Assembly: GCA_963730435.1 (NCBI GenBank)
Contig: CAVSRT010000013.1
Coordinates: 11,536-75,535, forward strand
Direction: 5' to 3'
DNA length: 64,000 nucleotides
Source: an uncultured Actinomycetota bacterium
GTDB taxonomy: Bacteria; Actinomycetota; Actinomycetes; Streptosporangiales; Streptosporangiaceae
In this document: positions 25,961-49,959 of the stretch, piece by piece
Layout: every line of letters starts with the position of its first letter
How positions within the stretch are numbered: position 1 is the first letter of the stretch
Notes under the pieces: model-generated
The model's input: the letters and a program-made list of their open reading frames with translations, nothing else
Told to the model about the DNA's origin: nothing
Databases searched by the model: none
Made by a program: the position numbers and the translations under genes

Positions 25961-26415
25961 GGCGTGTGCGCCTCTCGGATTCGGGCGCCGGAAACTAGGC
26001 CGCGAGCGCAGCCATCAACCTGGGCGGAGAAAGGAGGCGCCGGCGAGCCGTTCCCGGTCGCCAGCAGGTGTGTGAGGTCAGGCAGCGGCAACCGGCGAGC
26101 ACGTAGCTCGCGCGGCGGCGACGACGATGCGTGGGCAACTGGACCTCATACGCATCACTGTACCCAGCACGCCGTCCAAGATCACAACCCATTAAACCGG
26201 AACGGGGCCGCCCGACCCGGTCCCGGCCCACCCAGGCGCCGTGAGCCCCGCGCACGCGAGCCGACCCGCGGCAAACTCGGCAATAACTCCCAGACCGCTC
26301 GGGATTCCCGCAAGATATCTGTTGGTCCCAGGGTTGCTGGCGACTCCCACTAGTGCACCGGCCCTGACCTACCGGCCCAGACCTGCCGGCACTGACCCGA
26401 AGGGATCCACCAGCC

Positions 26416-31412: not shown

Positions 31413-32588
31413 CTAGGCCTGCTGGCCGCCGTTGGACTCCGTGAGCTGGGCCGAATTGGCCGTCGCCGAGTTGGCCGTCCCGTCGAGCAGCGCGACTTCC
31501 TTGCTTGGCGGCACGGACAGGCTCCGCTTCACCGACTCCAGGATGGTTAGGCCCTGGCTGACCAGGCCAGCGGCGATCTCGCTGAGTCCGTCGGCTCCGT
31601 TGAGCACGCTGACATTAGCGCCGGCAAGTCCGGCCGCCGCCTCCTTGACGATCATCGGCAGCTGCTCGATCAGCATCCGGTCCAGCGCCACCCTGTTGTT
31701 GGACGCGGCCGCCGCTGCCTGGAGCCTGGTCCGCTGCGCGTCGGCCTCGGCGAGGATCCTGACCTTCTCCGCCTCGGCCTCGGCCGGCTTGACCACCTCG
31801 GCCACCAGCTGCCGCTGCCGGAGCTCGGCCTGCCTGTGCGCCAGGTCCGTCTGCGCCGAGAGCACGCTCATCTGCGCCTGGGCCTGCGCGAGCGGTCCGG
31901 ACTGGGCGGCTTCCGCCTGGGCCTTGTCCACCTCAGCCTTGTACTGCGCCTGCACGACCATGGTCTGCCGCTGGTACTCGGCCTGCGCGCGCTGCGACTG
32001 CTGCTGGGCCTCAGCGGATGCCTGATTGGCCTGCGCCTGCGCGATCTGGGCCTGGCGCTGGATGGCGGCGTTGTGCGGCGCGGCCATCGCGTCGATGTAG
32101 CCGCTGTTCATGTCGTCGATGGACTGGATCTGGAGCGAGTCCACCGTCAGCCCGATCTTGGCCATCTCGGCCTTCGAGCCGTCGAGCACCTCGGTGGCCA
32201 GCTTCTGCCGCTCGGTGACGATCTCCTCGACGGTCATCGAGCCGATGATGGAGCGCAGGTGCCCGGCGAAGATCCGGCCGGTCAGCGTCGACATCTGGTC
32301 CTGGTCGGACAGGAACCGCTGCCCGGCGTTGACGATGCTCTCGTCGTCGTTGCCCACCTTGAACGCGATGACGGCGCGGACGTTGAGCGAGATGCCCTGC
32401 TTAGTCACGCAGGTCTCGGAGACCTCGGACTCGCACATCGACAGCGTGAGGTAACGGGCCTTGCGGAAGAACGGGGCGACGAAGGTACCGTGCCCGACAA
32501 CGACTTTGAATGGTGCCCCGCTCCGGCGCGAACGGCCACCCGAAATCAGCATGGCCTGGTCTGGCGCAGGCACCCGGTAACCCAACAT
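31413..32588 (-). CDS. flotillin family protein (SPFH/band 7 domain, FloT-like)
   Basis: N-terminus MLGYRVPAPDQAMLISGG...APFFRKARYLTLSM is the typical actinobacterial flotillin start. A long Ala/Gln-rich coiled-coil (flotillin repeats) follows. The ATG is 9 nt after GGAG. Confidence 0.8.
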   Translation of the reverse strand: MLGYRVPAPDQAMLISGGRSRRSGAPFKVVVGHGTFVAPFFRKARYLTLSMCESEVSETCVTKQGISLNVRAVIAFKVGNDDESIVNAGQRFLSDQDQMSTLTGRIFAGHLRSIIGSMTVEEIVTERQKLATEVLDGSKAEMAKIGLTVDSLQIQSIDDMNSGYIDAMAAPHNAAIQRQAQIAQAQANQASAEAQQQSQRAQAEYQRQTMVVQAQYKAEVDKAQAEAAQSGPLAQAQAQMSVLSAQTDLAHRQAELRQRQLVAEVVKPAEAEAEKVRILAEADAQRTRLQAAAAASNNRVALDRMLIEQLPMIVKEAAAGLAGANVSVLNGADGLSEIAAGLVSQGLTILESVKRSLSVPPSKEVALLDGTANSATANSAQLTESNGGQQA

Positions 32589-32660
32589 CTCTCTCATCTC
32601 CAGTTGTGACCCCGTGCCGGTCACTATGCCGGCTTATCCCAGTATGTTCCTTGCGCCGGG

Positions 32661-35201: not shown

Positions 35202-37310
35202 ATGAAGGGAATCCAGCCGTGGCCCGCTCTGCCGGAAAGGAGCGCTTCGGTGGCATCCGCAGTGGCGGCAGAGGTCTCCGCCGTGCTGGCCAACACCTCG
35301 ACCCGGACGCTCATACTCGGGATCGATAAGACTGGCCAGATCCGGCAGCACGACCGTGGCGCCGGTGACGTTCTGGCTGTGGAGCCGGGCGCGCTGATCG
35401 GGACCGACCTAGGTTCGTTGCTGGCCGTGCCCGACGGGCCGTCGGCCAAGGTTCTCCAGTCGCTGATCGATAGCGCGTGCTCCGACCGCGAGGGCACGAC
35501 GGTGCTGGCATTCCGCACGGCCAACGGCGCTACGGCCGAAGCGGTGGTCACGGTACAGCCGATCCGTTCGGCGGACCCCGAGCTGGCCGCGCAGGTCATC
35601 ATGCGGATCGCGCCGCCGGTGCAGGAGCGATTCCTGGACCCCGCGGTCATGCGACGGGTCATGGTGGACGGCGCCGTGCGGCGTATCGCCGGCGCGCTCG
35701 ACATCGACCAGATGGCGCCAGACCTGATCAACATCATCGTCCCGCACTTCTGCAACGCGGCCGGCCTGGTCGTACTGGAGAGCCTTGTCGGCGAGGACGA
35801 GTTCCCATCCGAGTCGCTCGACGGCACGGAGCTGATCCGCCGTCTCGCCGTCGCCCACGACGACGGCGATGCAGCCTGGGACGCCGCGTTCCCGACTGGC
35901 GAGATCCTGCGCTACCCGCCCGATACCCCGTACACCCAGTGCATGGAGTCCGGCCTTCCGGTGTGCCAGGTCGTGAACCGCGACAGCGCCGACTCGATGG
36001 CGGCCGCGTGGATCCGCCGACCGGTCGCCGAGTTGCTGTCCGGCGTCTCCATGCTGCTGCTGCCCCTCATCGCGCGCGACGTGATGCTCGGCTTCTTCAT
36101 CTGCGTCCGTCAGGTGGGCTACCGGCGGTTCGATGCCTACGACATCGAGATCGGGATGGAATTCGCGTCCCGTGCCGCGATCTTCATGGACAACGCTCAG
36201 CGGTACAGCCGCGAGCGCGCCACCGCCCTGACGCTGCAGCGCAGCATGCTGCCGACCGGCCTGTCGGCCCCGTCCTCCGTTGAGGTGCGGCACCGCTACC
36301 TGCCCGGCAGCAAGCTAATCGAGGTCGGCGGTGACTGGTATGAGTCGATCGCGCTGCCCGGCGGCCGGGTGGCGCTAGTCGTTGGCGACGTGGCCGGTCA
36401 CGGCGTCCGCGCCGCGGTGACCATGGGGCGGCTGCGCACCGCAATCCACACCTTGGCCATGCTGGAGCTGCCGCCTGCGGAGACGCTCCAGCACCTGAAC
36501 GAGCTGATGCAAGAGCTAGGGGTTCGCGAGCCGCACTTCGCGACCTGCGTGTACGCGGTCTTCGATGCGGTGAGCGGGACCTGCGAGGTCGCCTCGGCCG
36601 GCCACCTGCCACCGCTGCTGGTCCGGCCGGACGGGACCAACGAGTTCCTTGACGTCAATCCGGCCCCGCCGCTCGGCGTCGGTACCGGCCTGATTCAGAG
36701 CCGGACGCTCACCATCGAGGACGGCAGCCTGCTGGTGCTGTACACCGACGGGCTGGTGGAAAAGCGCAGCCGGGACATCGATGAGGGACTAGACCGGCTG
36801 CGCGAGATCTTCGGACCCGGGTCGGCGGACCAGCCGCTCGAGGACCTGTGCCGGGCCACGCTGGCCGGCGTCTACGCCGACGAGCACCGCGACGACATCG
36901 CCGTGCTGATGGCCAGGCTGCGGCGGATCCCGTCCGATCACGTGGTGAGCTGGACGCTGCCGTCCGAGCTCACCTCGGCGAGCCGCGCAAGGTCGCTGAT
37001 CCGGCGGCCGCTGCGGCGCTGGGGCCTGTCTGAGCTGCAGCCAACCGCGGAACTGCTCGTCTCCGAGCTCGTCACCAACGCGGTCCGCTATGCCCAGGGC
37101 AAGATCGGGCTCCGGCTGGTGCTGGAGGGCGGCCTGGTCTGCGAGGTGCTCGACGAATCAGCGGCGCTGCCGCGACTGCGCCACCCGGACGACTCCGACG
37201 AGCGCGGCCGCGGCCTTCAGGTCGTGAGTCAGCTCGCGCAACGCTGGGGTGCCAGGAGAGCGGCGTCCGGCAAGGTCGTCTGGTGCGAGCTGCCCCTGCC
37301 GTACTCGTGA
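35202..37310 (+). CDS. GAF domain-containing PP2C (SpoIIE) family protein-serine/threonine phosphatase fused to a C-terminal HATPase_c (RsbW-like anti-sigma-factor kinase) domain
   Basis: PP2C motifs (VGGDWYE, VGDVAGHGVRAA, LYTDGLVE) follow a GAF-like region. C-terminal ELVTNAVRYAQG...DESAALPRL...ERGRGLQVVSQLAQRWG kinase-like ATPase fold. Confidence 0.8.
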   Translation: MKGIQPWPALPERSASVASAVAAEVSAVLANTSTRTLILGIDKTGQIRQHDRGAGDVLAVEPGALIGTDLGSLLAVPDGPSAKVLQSLIDSACSDREGTTVLAFRTANGATAEAVVTVQPIRSADPELAAQVIMRIAPPVQERFLDPAVMRRVMVDGAVRRIAGALDIDQMAPDLINIIVPHFCNAAGLVVLESLVGEDEFPSESLDGTELIRRLAVAHDDGDAAWDAAFPTGEILRYPPDTPYTQCMESGLPVCQVVNRDSADSMAAAWIRRPVAELLSGVSMLLLPLIARDVMLGFFICVRQVGYRRFDAYDIEIGMEFASRAAIFMDNAQRYSRERATALTLQRSMLPTGLSAPSSVEVRHRYLPGSKLIEVGGDWYESIALPGGRVALVVGDVAGHGVRAAVTMGRLRTAIHTLAMLELPPAETLQHLNELMQELGVREPHFATCVYAVFDAVSGTCEVASAGHLPPLLVRPDGTNEFLDVNPAPPLGVGTGLIQSRTLTIEDGSLLVLYTDGLVEKRSRDIDEGLDRLREIFGPGSADQPLEDLCRATLAGVYADEHRDDIAVLMARLRRIPSDHVVSWTLPSELTSASRARSLIRRPLRRWGLSELQPTAELLVSELVTNAVRYAQGKIGLRLVLEGGLVCEVLDESAALPRLRHPDDSDERGRGLQVVSQLAQRWGARRAASGKVVWCELPLPYS

Positions 37311-37444: not shown

Positions 37445-38173
37445 TCAGGCGATGGTGGTGGGCTGTTGCGCCGTGTCGGCGCGCCTGGTGTCCTGCTTAA
37501 TGGACAGCTTCCCGTTCTCCATGATGCCAAGCCGCTGCGCGCGCCGCGCGATCATGCTGTCGTGCGTGACGAGCACGAGGGTAAGTTCCTGCTCGCGCCA
37601 GAGCTTCTCGAGCAGGCCGATGATCTCGTCCCTGGTGCCCTCGTCGAGGTTTCCGGTCGGCTCGTCAGCCAGCAGCACCTTCGGCTGCTTCACCAGGGCC
37701 CTGGCGATCGCGACACGCTGCTGCTGGCCGCCGGACAGCTCCGACGGCAGGTGCTTGGCCCGGTCGGCCAGCCCCACGTCGGCGAGCGCGCTGGCGGCGC
37801 GCCGCCGCCGCTCCGGTGCCGGGACGCCCAGCGGCACTAGCGCGGTCTCCACGTTCTCCTGCGCGCTCAGCGTCGGCACCAGGTTGAACGTCTGGAAGAT
37901 GAACCCGATCGACTCGGCCCTGACCTTGGTCACCTGACCCTCCCGGAGCTGGGCCAGGTCCACCACGCCTATCTCGTCGCCGAACTCGATGCTGCCCGAT
38001 GTCGGCCGGTCGAGGCCGCCCAGCATCTGCAGCAGCGTCGACTTCCCGTGACCGGTGGGACCCTGGATGGCGAGCCACTCGCCGTCCTCGATGTCCAGGT
38101 CGACGCCCTGGAGCGCCGCGATGACACCGCGGCCCTTGTAGTAGTCCTTCTTCACGGCAGTCAGCTTGTACAT
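37445..38173 (-). CDS. ABC transporter ATP-binding protein (MacB/LolD-type)
   Basis: Walker A GPTGHGKST, signature LSGGQQQRVAIARA, Walker B VLLADEPTGNLD, H-loop VTHD. The ATG (MYKLTAV) is after GGGAG. Confidence 0.85.
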   Translation of the reverse strand: MYKLTAVKKDYYKGRGVIAALQGVDLDIEDGEWLAIQGPTGHGKSTLLQMLGGLDRPTSGSIEFGDEIGVVDLAQLREGQVTKVRAESIGFIFQTFNLVPTLSAQENVETALVPLGVPAPERRRRAASALADVGLADRAKHLPSELSGGQQQRVAIARALVKQPKVLLADEPTGNLDEGTRDEIIGLLEKLWREQELTLVLVTHDSMIARRAQRLGIMENGKLSIKQDTRRADTAQQPTTIA

Positions 38174-38234
38174 GACGCTCCCTGGATGGCCGCAGATCCC
38201 GCAGTTCTGAGTCGACTCGATGGCGCGTGGCTGC

Positions 38235-39761
38235 TCACTCGACCCTCGCCAGGGCTGCAGCCGGACGCAGCCGGGCCGCGCGCCAGCCACCGAATCCGCC
38301 GGCGATCAGGCCGCCCGCGATCGCCAGCACCACGGCCGCCACGATGGCGCTGGCCGTGACCGGCGCGCTGAGGTGCACCAGCGTCGTGTGCGGCGCGGCC
38401 GCTGAAAGCGCGGGGAACCGGCTGGCGCCGGTTCCGGTCCCGCCGCCTGGGAACCCGCCGCCTCCGCCAGCGAAGCCGCCGCCGCCTGATCCGAAGAATC
38501 TCGCGCCGCCCGGCGTGGCGCTGCCCGTGGCCTGGCCAAGCGAAGCCGTTAGCGTCGATGAGAAGTGGCCAACCAGCGCAGAGCCGAGGAAGCCGAGGCC
38601 GACCCCGATGACGCCGCCGACGATGCCGATGACGATCGCCTCGCCGACCACCTGGCCGACGACCCGCCGGCTGTTCCAGCCGAGCGCCTTGAGCGTGCCG
38701 AACTCACGGACGCGCCGCGACACTGCCGACATCGTCAGCAAGCTCGCCAGCAGGAACGCCGCCACGAGCACCGCGATAGCGAGCCACTTGCCGAGATTAT
38801 TGGCAAGGCTCGAGGCGCTGGCGACCGAGCCGGTCAGCTGACTAGCCAGATCCGAGGAGTTCTCCACGGTCGACTTGGGCAGTGCGGCAGAGATCGACTT
38901 CGACACCGAGGTGATGTCCGCCGCGCTGTCGGCCGCCACGTAGATCGTGTTGACGTCGTTCTTCATGCCCGCAAGCGCCTGCGCGCGGCCGAGCGGAATG
39001 TAGTAGTCGAAGGAGGTGGCACTCGCCGGAACACTGACGATGCCGACCACCTTGAAGCTGGTCTTCGCGATGGTGGCAGTGGCGCCTACCGCGATCTTGT
39101 TGGACTTGGCGTAGTTGGCATCGACCAGCGCCACGTCGGCCGCATTGTCCGTGCCCGTCAAGGTGCGGCCCGCCGTGAGCTTGCCGAGGCTCAGCGGGCC
39201 GAGCCCGGCCGCGCTGCTCGCGAGGTCGACGCCGTCCACGCTGAACGAGGTCGGCGTGAACGAGCCGCGGAAGCCCCCGCCGCCGCTCCCACCCCCACCC
39301 CCGCCGCCGAAGCCGCCGGAGCCGCTGCCGCCGACATTAATCGCCGGGATTTTGCCGGTGATCCTGGTGTCGGTCAGCGTCAGCCCGCCCGCGGCCGCTG
39401 CGACGTTCTTCAGCTTCGACACCGATGTGAGATTGGCCGCGGTCATGGTGCCCAGGCCGCCACTACGCAGCGTGTCAATATCGATCTTGGTGCCGGCCGC
39501 GGGCCTCTTGCCAGTGCCGAACGCGCCCCGGAAGCCGAACGAGCCAGGAGCGAACGAGCCCGCCGTCGGTGCCTTGGTGACGGTGATGTCGGTGTCCTGG
39601 CCATACAGCGAGTGCAGCACTTCGCCTTGCGCGTTCTTCACGCCGCTGGACAAGGCCGTCACCGTGATGACCAGCCCGATTCCGAGCGCCAGGCCGAGGA
39701 CGATGATGCTGGCCTGCCGGGCGCGCCGGCGCAGCTCACGCCTCAGGTAGGTAAGAAACAT
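38235..39761 (-). CDS. ABC transporter permease, FtsX family, with Gly-rich periplasmic insert
   Basis: N-terminal TM, large periplasmic domain with (G)n tracts, and a C-terminal 3-TM FtsX block. The ATG (MFLTYL) is 6 nt after AAGGAG. Confidence 0.8.
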   Translation of the reverse strand: MFLTYLRRELRRRARQASIIVLGLALGIGLVITVTALSSGVKNAQGEVLHSLYGQDTDITVTKAPTAGSFAPGSFGFRGAFGTGKRPAAGTKIDIDTLRSGGLGTMTAANLTSVSKLKNVAAAAGGLTLTDTRITGKIPAINVGGSGSGGFGGGGGGGSGGGGFRGSFTPTSFSVDGVDLASSAAGLGPLSLGKLTAGRTLTGTDNAADVALVDANYAKSNKIAVGATATIAKTSFKVVGIVSVPASATSFDYYIPLGRAQALAGMKNDVNTIYVAADSAADITSVSKSISAALPKSTVENSSDLASQLTGSVASASSLANNLGKWLAIAVLVAAFLLASLLTMSAVSRRVREFGTLKALGWNSRRVVGQVVGEAIVIGIVGGVIGVGLGFLGSALVGHFSSTLTASLGQATGSATPGGARFFGSGGGGFAGGGGGFPGGGTGTGASRFPALSAAAPHTTLVHLSAPVTASAIVAAVVLAIAGGLIAGGFGGWRAARLRPAAALARVE

Positions 39762-39928
39762 CCGCACTCCTTGCAGCAAGTGTTCGTCGCTGGAGCCGAG
39801 ATCAGTTCCTGCCGCTCCGTCGCGGCCCTATCGGACTCCCGCCGCATGCAATGGTCCGCGGCGATACCGATGATGGGCGTGCTTCCTGGGCGGACCCTGA
39901 ATGCACTCTGCGAGGTAGCAGGACGCCG

Positions 39929-41869
39929 TTAGTCCGAGGCTGGCAGCGGCTCGTCTATGCGCATGCGGTCTGCCAGCGCGTCATCCGCGCGCAGGCTGGC
40001 GGCCAGCGCCGCTTCGTCGTCGCCGCTGTCGGTCTGACCCGCAGCGACATAACGACCGAGCGCGCCGAGTGGCAGCAGCAGCCCGGGCACGAGCGGACCG
40101 CGACGACGCGCCGAGCTGCGTCCCGCCGGCCGACCGTTCGCGTTGGCCCGCTCGCCGGCGTCTGCCTCGTCGCTGAGACCGCTCCGGTAACTGCGGCCAG
40201 GGCCGTCGCTCCAGCCGCCGTCTGGCTGCTGAGCGCGGACCAGCCAGTCTGCCGCGAGGTCGACGCCGTCGATCGTCTCGGCGCCGCCGGCCACGAGCAG
40301 CGCGGTGACAGCGCGGGCAGTCGACGCCGCCTCGGACGCGCCGCCATGTACGCCCATGGCCCAGCCGGCATCCAGGTTCTGCTGGCTCAGCAGCCAGTCG
40401 ACCGCCGCCCGGATGGGCGACTTGCCCGGCAGGACGCCGGCGACGAGAAGCGCGTGCAGCACCGTCGCGGTCGTGGCCAGGCCATCGGCGCCGCGCCACG
40501 AACCGTCCGGCAACTGCTCGCGCAGCAGCCAGATCACGCCGCGACGCAGGACGCGCGAGTCGGGCGCACCCTGAGTCGCTAGCGCCCGCACGACATGTGC
40601 GGTCACAGCGACCGAGCCGCTCCAGCTGCCATCGCGGCTCTGGACGCCGGTCAGCCATCGGATCGCGTTGCGGATCGCGGGCCTGCCGGTCAGGCCAGGC
40701 AGCTCGACCCGGCTCAGGGCGAGCAGCACTCTGGCCGTGTCGGCGACCACGGGGTAACCGTCCCGGCCGAACGACCAGCCTGACGGCTCGGGCCCGGATG
40801 CGACGCCAGCCCAGTCGGCCGGACCCTCGATCCGCTGGAGGAGCAACCAGCGTCCGGCAGTCACGAGCGCGGGGTGATCCGCCGCTACGGGCGAGTCGGC
40901 AAGCGCCTCGATGGCCAGCGTGGTGTCCAGGACTGGCGGCTGGCGAACGGCCGGCGGCTTTGCAGACCCGGCAGCATGCCGCGGCTGGGCCGTAGCCGCG
41001 TCGAGCCAGGACAGGCCCTTGGCCAGCACAGGATGGTCGGGCGGGTACCCAAGGAGGTGAAGCGCCACCAGCGAGCATGGCCAGCAAGGGCGGCGTGAGG
41101 CGGGCAGACCGGAGCGGTGCTGCCAGCCGATGAGCCACTGTCCGCACTTGCGCAGGGCAGCTGACTGCGCGAGGGTCAGCGCCGGCCTCCGCGTGCGTGC
41201 CCGGCGATCCGCGGCTGGAGGGCCGCCCGGTTCGCCAGTATGCAATTCGCTGAGCTCGATCGGGAGCGGCCGGGCCGGCCGCAACGTCGCGATTATGGTC
41301 AGCGCAACGCCCGCGGGCCGACCCCAGACGGCGCGATCCGGGCGGCTTGCGGCGTAGCGACCCGGCAGGTAGATGAGCTCAGGGGCGGGAACGTGGATGC
41401 CCTCCCACCCGGCAAGCCCGAAGGTCGCGAGCCACGTCCGGGCGAGGACTCCGGCACCGGCGACGCCGCCTGCATCCCTGATCCACCCCGCGGCCACGGC
41501 CATGTGGTAGGCGTCTGCCGAATCGCCCGCGAGGCGCAGGGCGAGATAGGCGAGCACCGATGCCGACAAGTCACCGGCGGCCGCCGGTCCTTCGCCTTCG
41601 GCCGCGGACTCGCCGCTGCCCGTCCACCGGCCGTCAGCCTGCTGAAGCGACCTAATCTGCTGCGCGGTCGCGTTCGTCTTCTCGGCGGTCCTGATCCCGA
41701 GGACCTCCCTGACGAGGAGGGCTTCGGCTTCCAGCGTCACATCGCCGACGGAGCGCCCGGACCACCAGCCCTGGCTGTCCTGGCGCGCAAGCAGGATCCG
41801 GCTTGCCCGCCGCACCGCAGCCCCAGCCGCACCGCGCGGGCCGGTCACGTCCTCATCTGCGGCGCTCAT
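39929..41869 (-). CDS. squalene-hopene cyclase (class II terpene cyclase) homolog with degenerate catalytic motif (VVADTA instead of DxDDTA)
   Basis: Aligns end to end with SHC: N-terminal QDSQGWWSG...TLEAEALLV, multiple QW motifs, and the C-terminal ...LLPLGALGRY. The DXDD region reads GYPVVADTARVLLAL. Confidence 0.75.
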   Translation of the reverse strand: MSAADEDVTGPRGAAGAAVRRASRILLARQDSQGWWSGRSVGDVTLEAEALLVREVLGIRTAEKTNATAQQIRSLQQADGRWTGSGESAAEGEGPAAAGDLSASVLAYLALRLAGDSADAYHMAVAAGWIRDAGGVAGAGVLARTWLATFGLAGWEGIHVPAPELIYLPGRYAASRPDRAVWGRPAGVALTIIATLRPARPLPIELSELHTGEPGGPPAADRRARTRRPALTLAQSAALRKCGQWLIGWQHRSGLPASRRPCWPCSLVALHLLGYPPDHPVLAKGLSWLDAATAQPRHAAGSAKPPAVRQPPVLDTTLAIEALADSPVAADHPALVTAGRWLLLQRIEGPADWAGVASGPEPSGWSFGRDGYPVVADTARVLLALSRVELPGLTGRPAIRNAIRWLTGVQSRDGSWSGSVAVTAHVVRALATQGAPDSRVLRRGVIWLLREQLPDGSWRGADGLATTATVLHALLVAGVLPGKSPIRAAVDWLLSQQNLDAGWAMGVHGGASEAASTARAVTALLVAGGAETIDGVDLAADWLVRAQQPDGGWSDGPGRSYRSGLSDEADAGERANANGRPAGRSSARRRGPLVPGLLLPLGALGRYVAAGQTDSGDDEAALAASLRADDALADRMRIDEPLPASD

Positions 41870-43854
41870 GCCGAGCTGCTCACGTGCTGTGTGGCGGCCG
41901 TGGAGGTGGTGGCCGTGGACGTGGTGGCCGGAACGTCCGGCCCGCCGCGGGCGCGTCTGGCCTTTGCGCGCGCAGGATCCCCGACAACGTCAGGACCCTC
42001 CGCAGCCACCTGGCCGTTGGCGCCTTCCGGATCGCCGGCAGGCCCAGGACCCGCCGCATCGACCGCGTCCGTCTCGCCTGCGCCGATGCCGGCCTGCGAC
42101 GCACTAGGCTCCGCCGTGCTCGTCTCCGCCGCACTGACCTCCGCCGCACTGACCTCCGCCGCACTGACCTCCGCCGCACTGACCTCCGCCGCACTGACCT
42201 CCGCCGCACTGACCTCCGCCGCACTGACCTCCGCCGCACTGGCCTCCGCCGTGCTGGCCGGAGCGGTGCTCGTGGGCGCGGGCGGCGTGCTCTCGGGCGC
42301 AGCCGGAGCCGGAGCCGGTGCCGGCCCCGGTCCCGGTGCGACCGACCCTCTGATGGCCAGCGCCGTGACGGCCGGCACTGTGCTGGCGGGAAGCGTGGTC
42401 GCCCGGACTCGCGCCGCCGGGACCCCGGCCGCCGGGACTCTGGCCGCCGGCACCTTCGCGCGGGCTGGCAGCTCCGCCATGAGCTTCTGCGCGGCGGCCT
42501 GACCGCTTCGGACAGCGCCCTCCATCGTGTCCGGCCAGCCGGTGTCGGTCCATGCTCCTGCCATCGCGAAGCCGGCGGGTCCGGCCTGCGCTAGTCGCAG
42601 TCGCTGCGAGCCAGGGACGTGCGCGATAGTGGCGCGGCGTTCCCTGGTGACGAAGAAGTCCTCCACACTTGCCTCAGCCGCGGCCGGGAACAGTCGCTCC
42701 ATTGCGGGCAGGAACTCTGCCCGCAACTGGGCTGCCGGGGTATCCAGGTACGCACCGGCAGCGCGCACCGAGGCGGCCAGGTACTGCCCGGCGTGCAGGC
42801 CGGACGGCGCTGTCTTGTCCATGACCCAGTGCACCGGGGAGCCGGCAGCGGCCGCGAATGGCAGCCGCGTCACGCGGCTGCCGTAGATGACGTGGATGCT
42901 CATCACCGGCGACGGCTCAAGCTGAGCCCACCGGGGCGCGTCGCCAGCAAGGCTGTCTGGAGCTAGGACGGCCGCCTCCCAGGCAGGCACCGCGAGGACG
43001 ACTCCGGCCGCGTGGATCCGTGCCGGCCCGTTCTCGAAGAGGGTTCCCTGCCGGATGTCGACTCCCTGCGCAGTACCGGTGTGCTCCCCGTAGGCGAGCC
43101 CGATGTCCCAGCCACCAGCGGCGCCAGCCCGCAGGGACGACACGCGGACGCCGAGACGGACCATCACCCTGAGCTGGCGCAGCAGCTCCGCGGCCGGATT
43201 ACCGTGCAGGTGGCTGAGCGGCACCGATGGCACGCCGAGATCGGCGCTGTCGCGCCTGGAAAGCACGGCGGTCCTGATCGCGCTGGCCGCCATGGCCAGA
43301 TCAGCGCTCTCGCTGTTGACGTTGAGCGCCGATAGCGACAGCTGATCCCAGAACAGCCGGCGAGCGCGCTCGTCCTGGCCGTGCCGGGCAAGCCAGTCAT
43401 CGAGGCTGCGGTCCTCTCGCCCGGCGATGTCGACGAACTGCAGAGCCAGCGCAGCGGTCGCGACCTTCGCCCGCTCGAGCCGAGACAGCAGGCGGTACCC
43501 GGCCAGCGACCGGGCCAGATGCCAGGGTGCGGGCAGCCCCGACCGCCGTACCCGTGCCAGCGCGTCGGGACCAAGCACAGTGAGATCGAGCTCGTCCTGC
43601 ACCGGGCCGCAGCCCGCGACCCCGAGCCTGGCCAGCAGCTCCCGGTATGCCAGGCAGCAGCGAAGGAAGACGTGCTGGCCGTTGTCGATGGTGAGCCCGC
43701 GCCTGGCGAATGACCACGTCGCGCCGCCTAGCCACGGCCTGGCCTCCAGCAGCGTGACCTGCAGGCCAGCGTCCGCCAGGTCAATGGCAGCACTAATCCC
43801 GGCTAATCCCCCGCCGATGACGACGACGCTCGCGCGACCTCCGGCCAGCGTCAT
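41866..43854 (-). CDS. HpnE-like FAD-dependent oxidoreductase (hydroxysqualene dehydroxylase/amine-oxidase fold) with about 200-aa low-complexity C-terminal tail containing (EVSAA)7-8
   Basis: GxGxxG VVVIGGGLAGISAA...LLEAR...GG...DNGQHVFL is typical of HpnE/phytoene-desaturase-like enzymes. The stop overlaps the SHC-like start in an ATGA junction. The internal ATG (MTLAGG) after GGGGGA is chosen as the start. Confidence 0.7.
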   Translation of the reverse strand: MTLAGGRASVVVIGGGLAGISAAIDLADAGLQVTLLEARPWLGGATWSFARRGLTIDNGQHVFLRCCLAYRELLARLGVAGCGPVQDELDLTVLGPDALARVRRSGLPAPWHLARSLAGYRLLSRLERAKVATAALALQFVDIAGREDRSLDDWLARHGQDERARRLFWDQLSLSALNVNSESADLAMAASAIRTAVLSRRDSADLGVPSVPLSHLHGNPAAELLRQLRVMVRLGVRVSSLRAGAAGGWDIGLAYGEHTGTAQGVDIRQGTLFENGPARIHAAGVVLAVPAWEAAVLAPDSLAGDAPRWAQLEPSPVMSIHVIYGSRVTRLPFAAAAGSPVHWVMDKTAPSGLHAGQYLAASVRAAGAYLDTPAAQLRAEFLPAMERLFPAAAEASVEDFFVTRERRATIAHVPGSQRLRLAQAGPAGFAMAGAWTDTGWPDTMEGAVRSGQAAAQKLMAELPARAKVPAARVPAAGVPAARVRATTLPASTVPAVTALAIRGSVAPGPGPAPAPAPAAPESTPPAPTSTAPASTAEASAAEVSAAEVSAAEVSAAEVSAAEVSAAEVSAAEVSAAETSTAEPSASQAGIGAGETDAVDAAGPGPAGDPEGANGQVAAEGPDVVGDPARAKARRARGGPDVPATTSTATTSTAATQHVSSSA
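42110..42245. repeat. 15-bp tandem repeat (CCGCACTGACCTCCG) x8 inside the HpnE-like gene tail
   Basis: Direct reading; encodes EVSAA repeats on the minus strand. Confidence 0.8.
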
Positions 43855-44272
43855 ACCCGATCCCCCGTCATGCCCCGACCCCCATCGGTTGACCCACCGC
43901 ATTGCTGCAGGCACGCGGATTCTAGCGAACCTCAGCGCCCGGCTCACCGTTCGCGCAAGTACTGGCCAGCCATGAATACGCGACCGGACTGCGCCAGGCA
44001 GTCCCGCGCCGGAGTGCCCCCGCGCCTCGCGGCTCAGCCCTTGCCGGATCAGTCATGCAGGGACCGGCCGGACGCCAGCTTCAGAGCCTGGCCCTGCGAC
44101 TGCACGATGCAACTCACACGTCGCATTTCGCAGAAACGTCTTCAGAATTCGGACCGCTCATCCGGTTTCATCTTTCTCCAGCGCATTCGGATGTTACGCT
44201 CCGATATCGTCTGCCAGGGATTTTGCCCTGACGGCGAGCTCCGCAAAAACCTCTCAGACTGGGGCCTCAGCC

Positions 44273-47200
44273 ATGGGATTGCGTCATAGGTCCATCCGAC
44301 TGAGGGTTGGCATCCTCATCGTCGTGCCGGTGCTCTGCCTGATAGGGCTGTATGCATTCGCTGCCAGCATCACTCTCGGTAGCGCCCTGACGCAGTCGCA
44401 GGCCAAGACGGTCCGCAGTGACCTGCTCACGCCCGTCGGCAACTTCCAGGCGGCCCTCGCCGCGGAGCGGCACCTCGCGGTCCTGAGCCTCTCCAATCCC
44501 ACGAGCACGCAGTTCGCGTCCGAAGTCGGCATGCAGGAAAACAACACTCGCAAGGCGTTCGACGCACTTCAGCTGGCGGTCAAGGCGCCGCAAGTCGCCG
44601 ACCATGCCTCGGCCGGCGAGCAAAAGGCGATCAAGAGCCTGCTGGCCTACGCGGGCACCCTGACAGCAATCCGCAGCAACGTCGCCGCCGGCGCGATCGG
44701 CATGAGCACGACCGTGGCTGACTACAACGGAATCATCAGCGCCGGCTACACGGTGCTCGACGAGGCCATCGACTCCCAGTCGAACGTCCCCGTAGTGACG
44801 CAAGCACTGGATGTCATCAACCTGGACCGCGGCTTGCAGGCGATGCTCGCCGAGAGCGACCTGCTGACCGGGGACATGACACAGCTCAAGTTCCCGCCGA
44901 GCGACAGGATCATGTTCGCCGAGCTGGCGGCGCAGCGGCAGCAGCTCGTCGCCACTGGTACGGCTGAGCTGCTGCCGGACTACGCGGCATTGATCAATCG
45001 CAACGTCACACCGGCCGTCGGCAAGTCATTGACGACGCTGGAAGACCAGGTCATCGCCACGCCGTGGCGGAAGGGGCAGCCGCCAGCCGACCTCGTCGCC
45101 AACACAGCGGCGTTCGGTCCCTACGCCAAGTCAATGGCGACGGCGCTCAGCGAGGCAGGCACCAAGCTGCAGGACCAGACGTCGCACCAGGCCAACGTCG
45201 TCTTCATCGAGCTCATCCTCGCGGCCGGGCTCGGCCTGCTCGGCACTATTGCATCGATCGCTCTCTCACTGGTCATCGGCCGCGGCCTAGTACGGCAGCT
45301 GCGTGAGCTCCGCGAGTCGGCGCTCAGCCTGGCGCACGACAAGCTGCCGGCGGTCATCGGCCAGCTTCGCGCCGGCCAGCAGGTCGATCCGAGCGACTAC
45401 GAGCCAGGCGAGGCGTCAGCGGGCAACGAGATCGCGCAGGTCCAGCACGCCTTCAACGTCGTGCAGCAGACCGCGGTCCAGACCGCCATCGACGAAGCGC
45501 GGCTGCGCCGTGGCATCAGCGATGTGTTCAGGAACCTGGCCGGCCGCAGCCAGTCTCTGCTGCACCGGCAGCTCACCCTGCTGGACGGCATGGAACGCCG
45601 GGCCACCGAGCCGGATGAGCTCGAGGACCTGTTCCGGATCGACCACCTCACCACCCGCATGCGGCGGCATGCTGAGGGCCTGATCATCCTCTCCGGCGAG
45701 GCGCCGGCCCGTGGCTGGCGCCAGCCAGTCCCCCTTGTCGACGTCCTGCGCGCGGCAGTAGCCGAGGTCGAGGACTACACCAGGATCAGGGTGCTGTGCC
45801 GGACGAATGCGGCTGTGGCCGGCCATGCCGTGGCCGACGTCATTCACCTCGTGGCCGAGCTGGCCGAGAACGCGACGGTCTTCTCGCCGCCGAACACCCC
45901 CGTGCGCATCCAGGGCGACATCGTCGGGCGGGGGTTCGCGGTCGAGATCGAGGACCGCGGTCTGGGCATCTCCCAGGTCCGCATGGACGAGATCAACGCG
46001 AACCTCGCTAGCCCGCCGCAGTTTGACCTGTCGGGCAGTGACCGGCTCGGCTTGTTCATCGCCGGTCAGCTGGCGCAGCGGCACGAGATCAAGATCACCT
46101 TGCGGCCCTCAGTCTACGGCGGCACGACCGCGATCGTGCTGATCCCCACCAGCCTGGTAGTCGAGGAAGACACTTACGAGCGCGACCCCGCGCTGCCTGC
46201 CGGGAGCGACGAGTCAGGCCCGCTGCCCGACCGCATCGCCGGGCGCCACGCTGCGCTCGCGCAGGTGAGCGGCCGGCTTGCCGCCGGCACCGCCGCGATC
46301 AACGGGGCTAACGGGACGAACGGCTATGGGCACGCGCGGCCCGACAGCGACGTTGACGGCGACCTCGACCGGCCGGGGCTGCCGTTGCGCAGCCAGCCGA
46401 CGCCGGCCAACGGTGCCGACTTCGGCGGCGTCAGCGAGCCCGACCCGGTCAGAGTGCCATGGGCTGACGACGGCGCTGTGCCGAGCGAGCCGGAGCCGGT
46501 CAGGCTCGCGTGGTCCGGGGAGAGCCAGAGTCCAGGTCAGCCCGAGCCAGTGAGGCTGTCCTGGTCCGACAACACGGTCAGCCCGAGCCAGCCGGATCCC
46601 GCCGGCGATCCAGAACCGGTCAAGCTGTCCTGGTCCGACGAGAGCGCGCGTGCCAGCGAGCGCGAGCCCGTCAGGATGTCCTGGGCCGATGACAGCGCGG
46701 GTACCGGCGAGCGCGAGCCCGTCAGGATGTCCTGGGCCGATGACAGCGCGGGAACGGGCGAGCGCGAGCCCGTCCGGCTCGCATGGTCCGACGACAGCGC
46801 CGCGACTGGCCAGCCCGAGCCCGCGCGGTTCTCCTGGTCAGACAACGGCAGCGCGGCGAGCCCGGCTGGGCCTGCCAGCTCCCCCAGCCAGCCGGACCCT
46901 GATGCTGACGCCAGGACGAGCACCTCCGAGCTTGGACTGCCGATCCGGGTGCGCCAGGCGAGCCTCGCGCCGCAGCTGCGTAACTCGGCGCCGCGCCCGG
47001 CGCCTGAGCCCATCGCCGGCAACGGCTTCTTCAGTCCGGCCACGCCCGCCGGGGGCAGGCGCTTCATGCCGCGGGAGTCCGCTACCGGCAGCTTCACGCC
47101 GCGCCAGCCCGCGGCGGCCGACTCGAGCCCGACCATGGCTTCGCCCGAAGCCGCCCGCAACACGATGAGCGCACTGCAGCGCGGCTGGCAGCTGGGCCGG

Positions 47201-47386
47201 GTCGAAGCGGAGCAGGACGCCACTTCGACGTCCGGCAGCTACGTGCCCGGAGAATCGGGACCGCACCAGTTCCCCACGACACCGAGTACATCCACAGCTG
47301 GCCAGGAACGCGGTCCGTACGCCGCTGGCACTCCAACCTCAGGGCCTGACCTGGCCGACAGCGCTGACCAGCGCGACGAAGAATAA
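44273..47386 (+). CDS. cvnA: conservon sensor-kinase-like protein (CvnA-type: N-terminal TM, NIT-like sensing domain, HAMP, HATPase_c) with about 330-aa Pro/Ser-rich C-terminal tail carrying about 8 EPVRxSWSD repeats
   Basis: Architecture and gene order (followed by roadblock, DUF742, GTPase) match Streptomyces conservons. HATPase motifs (..ELAENATVFSPPNT..DRGLGIS..). Confidence 0.8.
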   Translation: MGLRHRSIRLRVGILIVVPVLCLIGLYAFAASITLGSALTQSQAKTVRSDLLTPVGNFQAALAAERHLAVLSLSNPTSTQFASEVGMQENNTRKAFDALQLAVKAPQVADHASAGEQKAIKSLLAYAGTLTAIRSNVAAGAIGMSTTVADYNGIISAGYTVLDEAIDSQSNVPVVTQALDVINLDRGLQAMLAESDLLTGDMTQLKFPPSDRIMFAELAAQRQQLVATGTAELLPDYAALINRNVTPAVGKSLTTLEDQVIATPWRKGQPPADLVANTAAFGPYAKSMATALSEAGTKLQDQTSHQANVVFIELILAAGLGLLGTIASIALSLVIGRGLVRQLRELRESALSLAHDKLPAVIGQLRAGQQVDPSDYEPGEASAGNEIAQVQHAFNVVQQTAVQTAIDEARLRRGISDVFRNLAGRSQSLLHRQLTLLDGMERRATEPDELEDLFRIDHLTTRMRRHAEGLIILSGEAPARGWRQPVPLVDVLRAAVAEVEDYTRIRVLCRTNAAVAGHAVADVIHLVAELAENATVFSPPNTPVRIQGDIVGRGFAVEIEDRGLGISQVRMDEINANLASPPQFDLSGSDRLGLFIAGQLAQRHEIKITLRPSVYGGTTAIVLIPTSLVVEEDTYERDPALPAGSDESGPLPDRIAGRHAALAQVSGRLAAGTAAINGANGTNGYGHARPDSDVDGDLDRPGLPLRSQPTPANGADFGGVSEPDPVRVPWADDGAVPSEPEPVRLAWSGESQSPGQPEPVRLSWSDNTVSPSQPDPAGDPEPVKLSWSDESARASEREPVRMSWADDSAGTGEREPVRMSWADDSAGTGEREPVRLAWSDDSAATGQPEPARFSWSDNGSAASPAGPASSPSQPDPDADARTSTSELGLPIRVRQASLAPQLRNSAPRPAPEPIAGNGFFSPATPAGGRRFMPRESATGSFTPRQPAAADSSPTMASPEAARNTMSALQRGWQLGRVEAEQDATSTSGSYVPGESGPHQFPTTPSTSTAGQERGPYAAGTPTSGPDLADSADQRDEE

Positions 47387-47416
47387 GCGAAAGATCGACG
47401 GCAAGGGGAGGCCGAC

Positions 47417-47830
47417 ATGAGTCGCAGCGGGGCGCTTGACTGGCTGCTTGATGATCTGGTCACGCGAGTTGCCCAGATCGACAAGGCGGTGATCCTGTCA
47501 CGGGACGGGCTCGCAATCGGCGCGTCGGCCGGACTGAGCCGTGACGATGCCGAGCACTTGTCGGCGGTAGCGGCCGGCTTCCAGAGCCTGGCCAGAGGCG
47601 TCGGCCATCATTTCGGCGGAGGCCTGCCACGGCAGACGATTGTCGAGATGGAATCGGCCTTCCTGTTCGTGACCGCCGCCGGCGAAGGCAGCTGCCTGGC
47701 CGTGCTGGCGGCCGCCGACGCGGATGCCGCCGGGCACATCGCGTACGAGATGGCTGTGCTCGTCCGCCGGGTCGGCGAGCACATGGCGGTCAATGCGCGG
47801 CCGCCGGCCAGTACCGCCGAAGCGGTGTGA
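47417..47830 (+). CDS. cvnB: roadblock/LC7 domain protein (conservon CvnB-type)
   Basis: 137 aa. The ATG is after AAGGGGAGG. Typical Robl pattern (AVILSRDGLAIGAS...). Confidence 0.8.
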   Translation: MSRSGALDWLLDDLVTRVAQIDKAVILSRDGLAIGASAGLSRDDAEHLSAVAAGFQSLARGVGHHFGGGLPRQTIVEMESAFLFVTAAGEGSCLAVLAAADADAAGHIAYEMAVLVRRVGEHMAVNARPPASTAEAV

Positions 47831-47836
47831 CCTTAG

Positions 47837-48202
47837 GTGCGCGACGATCAGTGGCTCGACCGAGACGCGGGTCCCGTCGTCCGGCCGTATGCGCTTACTG
47901 GCGGCCGCACCCGCCCGCGGGGCGAGATCATCGACCTGCTCTCGATGGTCACATCGACGCGCCTCGGCTCCTCCAGCGACATGATGCTCGAGCCTGAGTA
48001 CATGGCGGTGGTCAGGCAGTGCCGCCGGCCGAAGTCGGTCGCCGACCTTGCCTCCGACCTTGACCTGCCGCTCGGCGTGGTCCGGATCTTGCTATCGGAC
48101 ATGCGCGAGAACGGACTGATCATGATTCGTCAACCAGCGCGGAGCCGGCTCACCGACCCGCAATTGCTCAAGGATGTCGCTGATGCTCTCCGCAGGCTCT
48201 GA
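47837..48202 (+). CDS. cvnC: DUF742 domain protein (conservon CvnC-type)
   Basis: GPVVRPYALTGGRTRP motif of DUF742. GTG start 7 nt after the cvnB stop. Confidence 0.7.
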   Translation: MRDDQWLDRDAGPVVRPYALTGGRTRPRGEIIDLLSMVTSTRLGSSSDMMLEPEYMAVVRQCRRPKSVADLASDLDLPLGVVRILLSDMRENGLIMIRQPARSRLTDPQLLKDVADALRRL

Positions 48203-48788
48203 CCGGGAGGTTGACACCGACGGACCGGTGTCAATCAAGATCCTCATCGCTGGCGGGTTCGGCGCTGGCAAGACCACGCTGGTGAGCTCGGTTAGCGAGA
48301 TCAAGCCGCTGCGAACTGAGGAAATGCTGAGCGAGCCGAGCGTCCTGGTCGACGCGCTCGACGGCGTCGAGCAGAAGACCACCACGACCGTGGCCATGGA
48401 CTTCGGCCGGATCACGGTGCGCGACGATCTGGTCGTTTACTTGTTCGGCACGCCGGGCCAGCATCGGTTCTGGTTCATGTGGGACGAGCTTGCGCTCGGC
48501 GCTCTTGGCGCCGTGGTGATGGCCGACACCCGCCGGCTGGCTGACAGCTTCCCCTCCGTGGACTACTTCGAGCGCCGCGGCCTGCCTTTCGTCGTCGCGG
48601 TGAACTGCTTCGATGGCGCCAAGCGATTCCGTCCCGATGTGGTCAGGACGGCGCTCGACCTCAGCAGCGAAGTGCCCGTGGTGCTGTGCGATGCGCGCCA
48701 GCGAGCGTCCAGCCGTGATGTGCTGGTGACTCTCGTCGAGTACGCCATCAAGCTGATCAGCGACAGCGAAGTCATGACGCCGAGCTAG
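48174..48788 (+). CDS. cvnD: Ras-like ATP/GTP-binding protein (conservon CvnD-type)
   Basis: P-loop AGGFGAGKTT, switch/DxxG-like LFGTPGQ and NCFD guanine-specificity-like motif. Overlaps the cvnC end. Confidence 0.75.
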   Translation: MSLMLSAGSDREVDTDGPVSIKILIAGGFGAGKTTLVSSVSEIKPLRTEEMLSEPSVLVDALDGVEQKTTTTVAMDFGRITVRDDLVVYLFGTPGQHRFWFMWDELALGALGAVVMADTRRLADSFPSVDYFERRGLPFVVAVNCFDGAKRFRPDVVRTALDLSSEVPVVLCDARQRASSRDVLVTLVEYAIKLISDSEVMTPS

Positions 48789-48834: not shown

Positions 48835-49959
48835 TCAGACTCGCCAGATCAGCGCGAGCGCGCAGTCGTCAGAGTTGCGCCCGCCGCCTTGCATGGTCTG
48901 CACGAGACGGGCCGCCCCAGCACCGAACCCGCTAGTTACGAGCCGGTCGGCTTCCCCGAGCAGCCGGTCGATGCCCGCGTCTATGTCTCGGCCGGGGACC
49001 TCGACAAGCCCGTCGGTGTACAGCATGAGGGCGTCACCGGGTCGCAGATGGCCGTTCTCGGGCCGGGTACGCAGATCGGGTACTACGCCCAGGACGATCC
49101 CGCGCGCCTTGGTCAGCCGCCATCGCCCGCTGCCGCCCTCGAACTGGGCGGCGGGCGGGTGGCCGCCTGAGGAGATGAGGTAGTCGCCGGTGACCAGATC
49201 AAGCGTGAGGTGGACCGCCGTGACGAATCCCTCCGGCGGGCCGCCACGCTGCAGGTACGCGTTGCAAGCCTGCAGGTAGTCAGCATGCGGGACAGACCCG
49301 AGCAAGCCGCCGAAGGCGCCCGATAGCAGGAGCGCCCTGGTACCTGCGTCGATCCCCTTGCCGGCCACATCCACCAGCGCGAGTTCCAGCACCTTGCCGT
49401 CACACGCCGACACCAGGAAGTCACCGCCGAAGGACGAGCCGCCCGCCGGCCGCAGCACCGACACCGCATGCCAGCCATCGGGCAACTCGGGCATCTTGCC
49501 CTGCGCCCGGATCCTGTCCCGGAGCTCGATCAGCATCTGATCGCCGCGCAGGCCCGGCATCCCGAGCCTGGCCCTGGTCCGCGCGAGCACATCGGCAAAG
49601 AGCGCCGTGATGCCAATTGTCGCGGCTATGCCGAGTCCAGCCCGCTTGTACACAATGTCGTAGGCGAGCATCGCGGCCACGAACGCGATCAGGATTCGCA
49701 GCGCCCGCGGCCACAGCAGCAGGCCGCCGGCGAGGATTGGCAAGATCATGACACCGGGCGACAGCCACTCCCCAGAGACCTTGACGGCTCCGATGCCGAT
49801 CCCGGCGACGACGGCAGCCAGGCCAAGCGCCATCCGGCGGTTCCGCGTGATGAGCTGGCGGCTGAACCACGCGCGCTGACGTCGCGCCGCGGACGCAGCC
49901 ACGGACCAGAGCCGGCGGCAGACCTGGGCAACCATCTTCCCGGCACTGTATCGGTACAA
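48835..49959 (-). CDS. membrane-anchored PP2C (SpoIIE) family protein-serine/threonine phosphatase
   Basis: N-terminal about 120 aa with 3-4 TM helices, then PP2C motifs (FGGDFL, VDVAGKGIDAG, LYTDGLVE). The exact start is uncertain (TTG in track; ATG 8 codons in). Confidence 0.7.
   Translation of the reverse strand: MYRYSAGKMVAQVCRRLWSVAASAARRQRAWFSRQLITRNRRMALGLAAVVAGIGIGAVKVSGEWLSPGVMILPILAGGLLLWPRALRILIAFVAAMLAYDIVYKRAGLGIAATIGITALFADVLARTRARLGMPGLRGDQMLIELRDRIRAQGKMPELPDGWHAVSVLRPAGGSSFGGDFLVSACDGKVLELALVDVAGKGIDAGTRALLLSGAFGGLLGSVPHADYLQACNAYLQRGGPPEGFVTAVHLTLDLVTGDYLISSGGHPPAAQFEGGSGRWRLTKARGIVLGVVPDLRTRPENGHLRPGDALMLYTDGLVEVPGRDIDAGIDRLLGEADRLVTSGFGAGAARLVQTMQGGGRNSDDCALALIWRV

Follow-up and report, generated by a model that had tools for sequence, protein, structure and literature searches.

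A squalene-hopene cyclase-derived candidate pseudoenzyme in a probable reduced hopanoid-biosynthesis operon of an uncultured actinomycete

The stretch of DNA analysed here, 64,000 nucleotides of contig CAVSRT010000013.1 from an uncultured Actinomycetota bacterium of the Streptosporangiaceae (the 64-kb window, G+C ∼69%), carries four co-oriented minus-strand genes that encode the flavoenzyme HpnE, a divergent homologue of squalene-hopene cyclase (SHC) which we call SHCL, an FtsX-type permease, and an ABC ATPase (Table 1). We consider it likely that this locus is a reduced hopanoid-biosynthesis operon, in which SHCL would be a retained pseudoenzyme and the FtsX-ABC pair an inherited neighbour. 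A sequence-only reading of the window had regarded the coupling of a disabled cyclase fold to an FAD oxidase and an exporter as an undescribed arrangement. The gene models of that reading, with their coordinates and chosen starts, have proved sound in the analysis of open reading frames (ORFs), Pfam and NCBIfam matches, and the MacB_PCD plus FtsX domains of the permease and the ABC_tran domain of the ATPase have both been found 3' of the SHC homologue. The idea of a newly assembled module of oxidase, dead cyclase, and exporter is not supported, as the FtsX-ABC pair lies directly downstream of a complete hopanoid operon in related genomes, and the arrangement in the window can therefore be read as the remainder after the deletion of five genes.

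A database search has returned 120 relatives of SHCL, from 100% down to ∼45% identity, almost all of them from soil metagenomes and metagenome-assembled genomes labelled Streptosporangiaceae or uncultured Actinomycetota. Every family member that can be placed shows the same reduced context, namely a divergent conservon-like gene set followed by hpnE, SHCL, ftsX, the ABC ATPase gene, and a convergent SpoIIE/HATPase gene, and this state with the same flanks has been observed in loci L001-L015, L052, L053, L057, L058, L060-L074, and others. The sole match among the 120 with an intact DIDDTA motif (P0117, 45% identical) occupies the same chromosomal slot. In L054-L056 the slot holds hpnC, hpnD, hpnE, a polyprenyl synthase gene, shc, ispH (LytB), hpnH, ftsX, and the ABC gene in this order; the cluster from hpnC/hpnD through the ABC gene recurs in L077, L080, L091, L093, L110, L114, and L121, and L085, L107, and L115, which lack the upstream end, contain the part that starts with hpnE or the polyprenyl synthase. 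A further ∼20 partial contigs carry ispH and/or hpnH and then FtsX. The SHC motif in the full clusters of these sister lineages reads DIDDTA or DTDDTA. A metagenome scan with the FtsX protein as seed has yielded 80 related loci, which were sorted by hand according to gene order: ∼32 contain a complete or partial cluster whose SHC reads DIDDTA or DTDDTA, and in many of these a PMT_2 GT-C gene precedes ftsX; ∼25 are reduced, with hpnE-SHCL directly upstream of FtsX; one is reduced and has the order SHCL-GT-C-FtsX, which has also been found in L025 and L027 from the genome-contig scan; and ∼7, in which the upstream sequence extends over 3.7 kb or more, have two-component system or glycosyltransferase genes in place of hopanoid genes. 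In the rest of the 80 loci the upstream sequence is too short to be classified.

The genes missing from the reduced loci appear to have left no trace. At E<1e-3, tblastn searches of the 64-kb window and of the reduced loci with the five genes of the deleted set (hpnC, hpnD, the polyprenyl synthase gene, ispH, and hpnH) have matched nothing, the HpnE tail and the 420-bp divergent intergenic region included. The earlier statement that the operon lacks hpnC and hpnD thus extends to the entire window. A hopanoid cluster comprises a functional shc together with a squalene supply (hpnCDE or sqs), usually with hpnH; the window locus has hpnE and a dead shc only. In a neighbour-joining tree of the flanking SpoIIE and ABC proteins, the full-cluster loci L054 and L055 have been placed outside all reduced loci, and in the tree of the cyclases the SHC-like proteins form one long-branch clade. 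The course suggested by these observations would begin with an ancestral full hopanoid operon, from which hpnC and hpnD, the polyprenyl synthase gene, and ispH and hpnH would have been lost; the GT-C gene would additionally have been lost in most descendants, and the remaining hpnE and shc would have become joined through an ATGA overlap. The adjacency of FtsX-ABC appears from this gene order to have been inherited, and the pair would not be a dedicated exporter for products of HpnE and SHCL; a functional tie between the transporter and hopanoids is not needed to explain the arrangement.

The PMT_2 GT-C gene deserves a separate remark. It lies between SHCL and FtsX in L025, L027, and L079, and more generally between hpnH or SHCL and ftsX (L027 11987-13588, L025 12288-14027), and it also precedes ftsX in L077, L080, L085, L091, L093, L107, and L079; it is absent from the window. 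The 2.2-2.4 kb insert between SHCL and FtsX in L025 and L027 had been considered as decayed ispH/hpnH and has turned out to be this glycosyltransferase. The sugar donors of GT-C enzymes are linked to polyprenyl phosphate, so that in this clade a larger envelope-related block may comprise the hopanoid operon together with the GT-C gene and the FtsX/ABC pair. In L116, tandem near-identical ORFs (1248-5215; 656 and 683 aa) stand directly upstream of an FtsX/ABC pair related to that of the window; they had been taken as candidates for degenerate HpnE/SHCL and encode duplicated polytopic membrane proteins that match no Pfam family.

The general acid of SHC catalysis is missing from SHCL. In the DxDD motif of SHC, D376 (Alicyclobacillus acidocaldarius numbering, Aa below) is the general acid. 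SHCL matches the Pfam models SQHop_cyclase_N and SQHop_cyclase_C with 219 and 144 bits and stays below the cut-off of the SHC equivalog model TIGR01507 (258.5 vs 431.1 bits). A phmmer alignment with the PDB entry 2sqc pairs YPVVADTA with YPDV[C376]DTA, which corresponds to D374V and D376A with D377 retained, and so bears out the earlier observation that VVADTA stands in place of DVDDTA, with alanine for the general acid and valine for the preceding aspartate. That reading had also called for a check of orthologues: among the 112 near-full-length homologues on which all family counts here are based, the general acid is missing in every one, and position 376 is occupied by A in 94, G in 11, T in six, S in one, and D in none. 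The rest of the motif has been largely kept (D377 in 107, T378 in 112, A379 in 108). The window protein contains no D.DD motif elsewhere, which dismisses a hidden DxDD, and no DxD acid motif is conserved elsewhere in SHCL. Because D376 is never present in the 112 homologues and no D.DD occurs at another site, these alignments exclude sequencing error, misalignment, and a lone mutation as explanations of the missing acid; the last would require an isolated event, and the loss runs throughout the family.

Loss of the cyclase features goes far beyond the general acid. For this comparison a set of 10-11 canonical SHCs has been used, including that of A. acidocaldarius, whose sequence as used here agrees with the printed 2sqc alignment at residues 13-419 and 446-593. 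In 10 canonical sequences the cavity residues and the partners of D376 are invariant or conservatively substituted (Y420F). In the SHCL family the aromatic cavity has been replaced, has become variable, or has been deleted: W312 is R, L, or A; F365 is deleted; D447 is A or V; H451 is L, H, or Y, with histidine kept in the window protein and in 23 of the 112; W489 and Y495 show at least five states each; F601 and F605, together with L607, are mostly R; Y609 is S or P, and Y612 is P. At D374 the family has V, R, A, S, or N, and E93, R127, and Q262 have become L, G, and R. Residues 420-444, the channel loop with Y420, F434, C435, and F437, and residues 212-221, the start of the membrane-dipping helix, are deleted with 0% occupancy in the 112, so that SHCL lacks the membrane-dipping helix and substrate channel as judged by the Aa 212-231 region and the F434/C435 loop. 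The C-terminal aromatic segment has been replaced by GRxxxRRRGxLVPG, whose basic RRRG stretch is predicted to be disordered (pLDDT 43-45). The alignment with SHC had been described as full-length, which does not hold in view of the two deletions of ∼10 and 25 residues (Aa 212-221 and 420-444) and of the exchange of the aromatic segment for a basic, low-confidence loop.

Over the whole protein, only 74 of the 192 canonical-invariant columns survive at ≥90% in the SHCL family (61% lost), the content of F+W+Y is 5% compared with 10-12.5% in canonical SHC, and the pI has risen to 7.8-10 from 5.2-5.5. Retained are seven QW-like motifs at canonical positions, and the two-domain alpha/alpha-toroid (beta-gamma) fold with QW repeats has been confirmed. 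In addition, 17 positions are newly conserved, in that ≥90% of the family share a residue which canonical SHCs lack; among them are E93L, R251W, and Q262R, and the former cavity positions 262, 307, 601, 605, and 607 are mostly arginine. The variation of former active-site positions among family members argues against a replacement catalytic centre at that site. With four of the five tested defining features of SHC lacking, SHCL should, by its sequence, not be filed as an SHC.

The rate at which SHCL has diverged and the constraint under which it has remained are both pronounced. In Tajima relative-rate comparisons with Streptomyces or other canonical SHCs as the outgroup, the window protein shows 167 unique changes and its syntenic canonical sister 26 (chi2 ∼103), while the corresponding values for HpnE are 53 and 35 (chi2 3.7-8). 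SHCL has therefore evolved ∼6 times faster than its canonical sister, and HpnE is mildly accelerated. Among themselves and with Streptomyces SHC, the canonical SHCs of the sister loci share 65-82% identity, but with SHCL only 42-51%; flanking proteins across the same genomes have kept 80-92% identity. Relative to its two closest relatives (85-86% identity), SHCL has a dN/dS of 0.17-0.18 (Fisher p 5e-41 and 1e-46), and HpnE has 0.25-0.37, with ftsX (0.13-0.18) and the sensor kinase gene (0.09-0.16) for comparison. Intact SHCL reading frames, QW motifs, and ATGA coupling have been found in more than 100 sequences, down to ∼45% identity. Because dN/dS is well under 1, new positions have become conserved, and canonical columns of HpnE have been kept, both hpnE and SHCL are maintained by selection; the dN/dS values of the two genes also dismiss a neutral pseudogene. 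SHCL hence combines lost catalytic residues with purifying selection on its coding sequence, which is what is understood by a pseudoenzyme, and we infer that it no longer cyclises squalene and has been preserved in a non-catalytic capacity. Its most plausible role would be that of a soluble binding or scaffold partner of HpnE, and not of a cyclase; with moderate to low confidence, SHCL would be a soluble basic alpha/alpha-toroid that is made stoichiometrically with HpnE.

For HpnE itself, the proposed identity as an amine-oxidase-fold enzyme has been substantiated by a TIGR03467 score of 351 bits (cut-off 283) and a Pfam Amino_oxidase match at 1.8e-33, and the FAD-binding GxGxxG motif is intact (VVVIGGGLAG). 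HpnE of the reduced lineage has retained 66 of 90 canonical-invariant columns; the other 24 are altered, several of them consistently (R->A at 133, S->D at 185, D->G at 325, Q->H/R at 342). No HpnE structure is found among the solved entries of the PDB, in which the top match is a phytoene desaturase (E=4e-12). HpnE is, with moderate to low confidence, probably still an FAD oxidoreductase. Its partners HpnC and HpnD, the suppliers of hydroxysqualene, are usually encoded adjacently, and neither the 64-kb window nor any reduced locus contains a homologue of the SQS_PSY family to which they belong. Should the genome as a whole prove devoid of hpnC and hpnD, the question would arise on which substrate HpnE acts. 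The tail with EVSAA repeats that had been noted at its C-terminus has been recovered by Tandem Repeats Finder (TRF; 15 bp × 8.5 copies, 99% matches), and the reported overlap of the hpnE stop with the SHCL start has been read directly from gcATGAgc. L053, L057, and L058 share this 4-nt overlap, and in L052 the overlap measures 16 nt. Tails in the reduced lineage measure 19-268 aa and contain different short repeats by genome: (PEASTV)n in L025, (GNPVQP)n in L003, (TDGSAG)n in L013, (VPASP)n in L058, (AAATE)n in L011, and (EVSAA)n in the window. Since Streptomyces canonical HpnE ends 2-8 aa past the core, this variability in length and repeat fits a rapidly evolving filler that keeps translation of hpnE going up to the shc start and so preserves the overlap.

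Several points weigh against regarding the locus as a remnant with a non-catalytic SHCL and a merely inherited transporter. The absence of further hopanoid and squalene genes is a result for the 64-kb window and the reduced loci, and such genes may lie elsewhere in these genomes. All evidence stems from one syntenic clade, in which neighbourhood cannot separate function from inheritance. The transporter lies on the same strand 167 bp downstream of SHCL with no clear terminator between them, by which co-transcription or a functional link is possible. Finally, the 17 newly conserved positions and the arginines (Q262R, F601R, F605R, L607R) could mean a new ligand site. In another reading, which we regard as unlikely but conceivable, HpnE and the SHC scaffold would have been co-opted jointly, after dismantling of the pathway, into a two-protein module of an active flavoenzyme and a basic, arginine-lined toroid that would bind a new anionic ligand or macromolecule, perhaps with the MacB-type transporter. 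If this were true, no pseudo-terpene-cyclase with a selected non-cyclase function would have been documented before it.

An improbable rival is a module for lipid binding and export, in which SHCL, perhaps together with HpnE, would bind an isoprenoid or other lipid and pass it to the MacB/FtsX ABC transporter; here the transporter would already have been tied to the ancestral hopanoid operon, with SHCL as the surviving cytoplasmic adaptor. The common strand, the short spacer, and the lack of a convincing terminator would suit such a module, as would the purifying selection on a catalytically dead SHCL and the fact that, in most of the related contigs that are informative, FtsX-ABC follows immediately 3' of an intact or reduced set of hopanoid genes. 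However, arginine has mainly taken the place of the hydrophobic cavity residues, deletions have removed the channel loop and the membrane helix, and aromatics are halved, which makes a poor fit for a lipid; FtsX-ABC relatives (∼60-70% identity) exist beside two-component or glycosyltransferase genes with no hopanoid genes; the GT-C gene intervenes between SHCL and FtsX in the three loci named above; and all loci fall within one syntenic clade. The earlier suggestion of a polyprenoid-binding or export module has accordingly been weakened on its binding side by the arginine-rich cavity and the basic character of the protein, and as a whole it keeps a low probability.

We hold it to be quite improbable that SHCL is a neo-functionalised enzyme that uses a non-canonical acid (e.g., D377) or an arginine-lined pocket on an anionic or phosphorylated isoprenoid, with HpnE processing its substrate or product. 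Conservation of D377, T378, and A379 (107, 112, and 108 of the 112), the predominance of arginine at Q262, S307, F601, F605, and L607, and the 17 newly conserved positions speak for such an enzyme; the free variation at D374, W312, H451, W489, and Y495, the predicted disorder of the RRRG segment, the lack of any conserved D.DD or DxD acid motif elsewhere, and the lack of a substrate-supplying gene nearby speak against it. A cyclase with non-canonical initiation, which the sequence-only reading had offered, is unlikely, given that the aromatic cavity, the channel loop, and the membrane helix are gone along with the acid and that active-site positions vary freely. Very improbable, too, is a non-functional relic in which both genes are decaying leftovers whose long ORFs persist because stops are rare in 70% G+C DNA. 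The deletion of five of the seven operon genes, the loss of 61% of canonical-invariant residues at six-fold acceleration in SHCL, and the repeat-prone HpnE tail of very variable length are what such decay would produce, but the dN/dS values of SHCL and HpnE lie far below 1 (Fisher p 1e-19 to 1e-46) and resemble those of ftsX and of the sensor-kinase gene nearby. Moreover, the >100 sequences have kept their reading frames, QW motifs, and ATGA coupling intact, and 17 positions have become newly conserved. The chance that a sequencing or assembly artefact or a misalignment at ∼40.75 kb conceals a genuine DxDD is negligible, as the HMMER alignment is in agreement with that of MAFFT, D.DD is absent from the window protein, and the same xx[A/G/T/S]DTA stands in 112 independent sequences from many assemblies, with no supporting point found.

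Table 1. Positions of the operon features and of neighbouring genes in the 64-kb window.
Feature	Coordinates	Strand	Remarks
hpnE ORF	41866..43947	-	ATG at 43854, preceded by GGGGGA
hpnE, FAD-dependent amine-oxidase-fold enzyme of the hydroxysqualene dehydroxylase family	41866..43854	-	TIGR03467, Pfam Amino_oxidase
hpnE core, ∼residues 1-490	42385-43854	-
hpnE low-complexity C-terminal tail	41866-42384	-	last 170-200 residues
15-bp tandem repeat, (EVSAA)n, within the HpnE tail	42124..42251	-	TRF: 8.5 copies, 99% matches
ATGA overlap of hpnE stop and SHCL start	41866..41869	-	sequence gcATGAgc
SHCL, putative SHC-derived pseudoenzyme, 646 aa	39929..41869	-	two-domain alpha/alpha-toroid class II cyclase fold, predicted to lack the catalytic apparatus
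VVADTA, SHCL residues 374-379	40733..40750	-	replaces proton-donor motif D374-V-D376-D377-T-A
167-bp spacer between SHCL gene and ftsX	39762..39928	-
ftsX ORF	38235..39779	-	ATG at 39761 behind AAGGAG
MacB/FtsX-type ABC permease, extracytoplasmic MacB_PCD domain	38235..39761	-	Pfam MacB_PCD 6.7e-14, FtsX 2.7e-13
ABC ATPase ORF	37445..38290	-	ATG at 38173
ABC transporter ATPase, LolD/MacB-like nucleotide-binding subunit	37445..38173	-	Pfam ABC_tran 1.2e-34
Conservon-like four-gene set	44273-48788	+	divergent from hpnE
SpoIIE (PP2C) phosphatase gene	35202-37310	+	fused to GAF-like segment and HATPase_c_2 anti-sigma-kinase-like domain
SpoIIE (PP2C) phosphatase gene	48835-49959	-
Flotillin-like Band_7/SPFH gene	31413-32633	-	5 kb from the transporter
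430-aa ORF	24722-26014	-	tRNA-synt_2c, profile positions 4-310 of 552

As to the transporter and the signals around it, the ABC ATPase has LolD as its top NCBIfam model with 205 bits, under the cut-off of that model, and the combination of a MacB_PCD and FtsX permease with a cognate ABC ATPase identifies a MacB/FtsX (type VII) transporter by its Pfam domains. The permease contains long glycine runs, e.g., GGFGGGGGGGSGGGGF, in its extracytoplasmic MacB_PCD domain and further glycine runs ahead of the last transmembrane segment, and ftsX has its own AAGGAG ribosome-binding site. A scan for promoters and terminators has given nothing convincing for the operon boundaries, including the 167-bp spacer, and an Rfam scan of the whole window has returned zero family matches. 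Among the neighbours, the conservon-like set consists of a NIT-domain sensor histidine kinase (1037 aa), Roadblock/LC7, DUF742, and an ATP_bind_1 small GTPase, and it borders intact as well as reduced hopanoid loci of relatives. SpoIIE phosphatase genes lie on both sides of the region; the protein of the plus-strand gene shows 88-94% identity in most relatives and 83% in L027, and is conserved far more strongly than hpnE or SHCL. The flotillin-like gene is syntenic in all relatives. In the 430-aa ORF the match is confined to the N-terminal catalytic part of class II alanyl-tRNA synthetase (AlaRS), and the ORF may represent a truncated AlaRS paralogue.

The consequences for genome annotation are direct. 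JGI/IMG names SHCL proteins 'squalene-hopene/tetraprenyl-beta-curcumene cyclase', and NCBI names them 'prenyltransferase/squalene oxidase repeat-containing protein'. The shc gene is the standard marker for hopanoid producers in genomes and metagenomes. Because SHCL is annotated as SHC, with strong Pfam SHC matches, and yet almost certainly cannot make hopanoids, surveys of soil and peat, the habitats of these uncultured Streptosporangiaceae-like actinomycetes, may over-count hopanoid producers unless DxDD is checked. The family also catches the decay of an operon between the intact and the lost condition, as the full cluster, a reduced intermediate that bears GT-C, and the reduced state are found in one slot. 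Purifying selection on a class II cyclase that is dead and on an HpnE that is an orphan, moreover, implies a function for both, and the pair offers a target both for the biology of pseudoenzymes and for that of HpnE without HpnC/HpnD. On this reading the case is one of gene-cluster decay that yields a retained pseudoenzyme, in a family that descends from a standard actinobacterial hopanoid operon.

Among known systems, the closest in sequence is SHC itself (A. acidocaldarius, PDB 1gsz/2sqc; TIGR01507), the best match of SHCL among solved structures. Both share the alpha/alpha-toroid fold, seven QW-like repeats, the YP..DTA..LAL framework, and the GALGRY C-terminus; SHCL differs in that D374 and D376 are absent, W312, F365, Y420, F434, F437, D447, W489, Y495, F601, F605, Y609, and Y612 are lost or deleted, the start of the membrane helix is deleted, and SHCL is a basic protein where SHC is acidic, with a score under the family cut-off. 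With other pseudoenzymes SHCL shares the lost catalytic residues, the kept fold, and purifying selection; the label describes its evolutionary state and not a mechanism. The transporter resembles MacB/FtsX (type VII) ABC transporters in its MacB_PCD and FtsX permease with a separate LolD/MacB-like ATPase, and differs by glycine-rich inserts in the extracytoplasmic domain and by adjoining the hopanoid operon in this clade. Divergent SHC-like proteins have been described in Actinobacteria, Myxobacteria, and Planctomycetes, with critical catalytic residues conserved only in the planctomycete proteins (Santana-Molina et al., 2020; PMC7306690), and catalytically doubtful actinobacterial SHC homologues are thereby already on record; in the main text of that paper there is no account of the SHCL family, of its origin by operon reduction in situ, of the pairing with hpnE, or of the purifying selection. 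A literature search for the family, the hpnE pairing, and selection on it has found no description beyond that general remark on SHC-like proteins. Compared with the Streptomyces hop-type operon (hpnC-hpnD-hpnE-polyprenyl synthase-shc-...-hpnH), finally, hpnE and shc of the window appear as direct descendants with order and strand kept, and they occupy the slot in which sister lineages have the full operon. The window differs in lacking five of the seven genes, in its dead shc and ATGA overlap, and in an hpnE that bears a variable low-complexity tail at the former position of the polyprenyl synthase.

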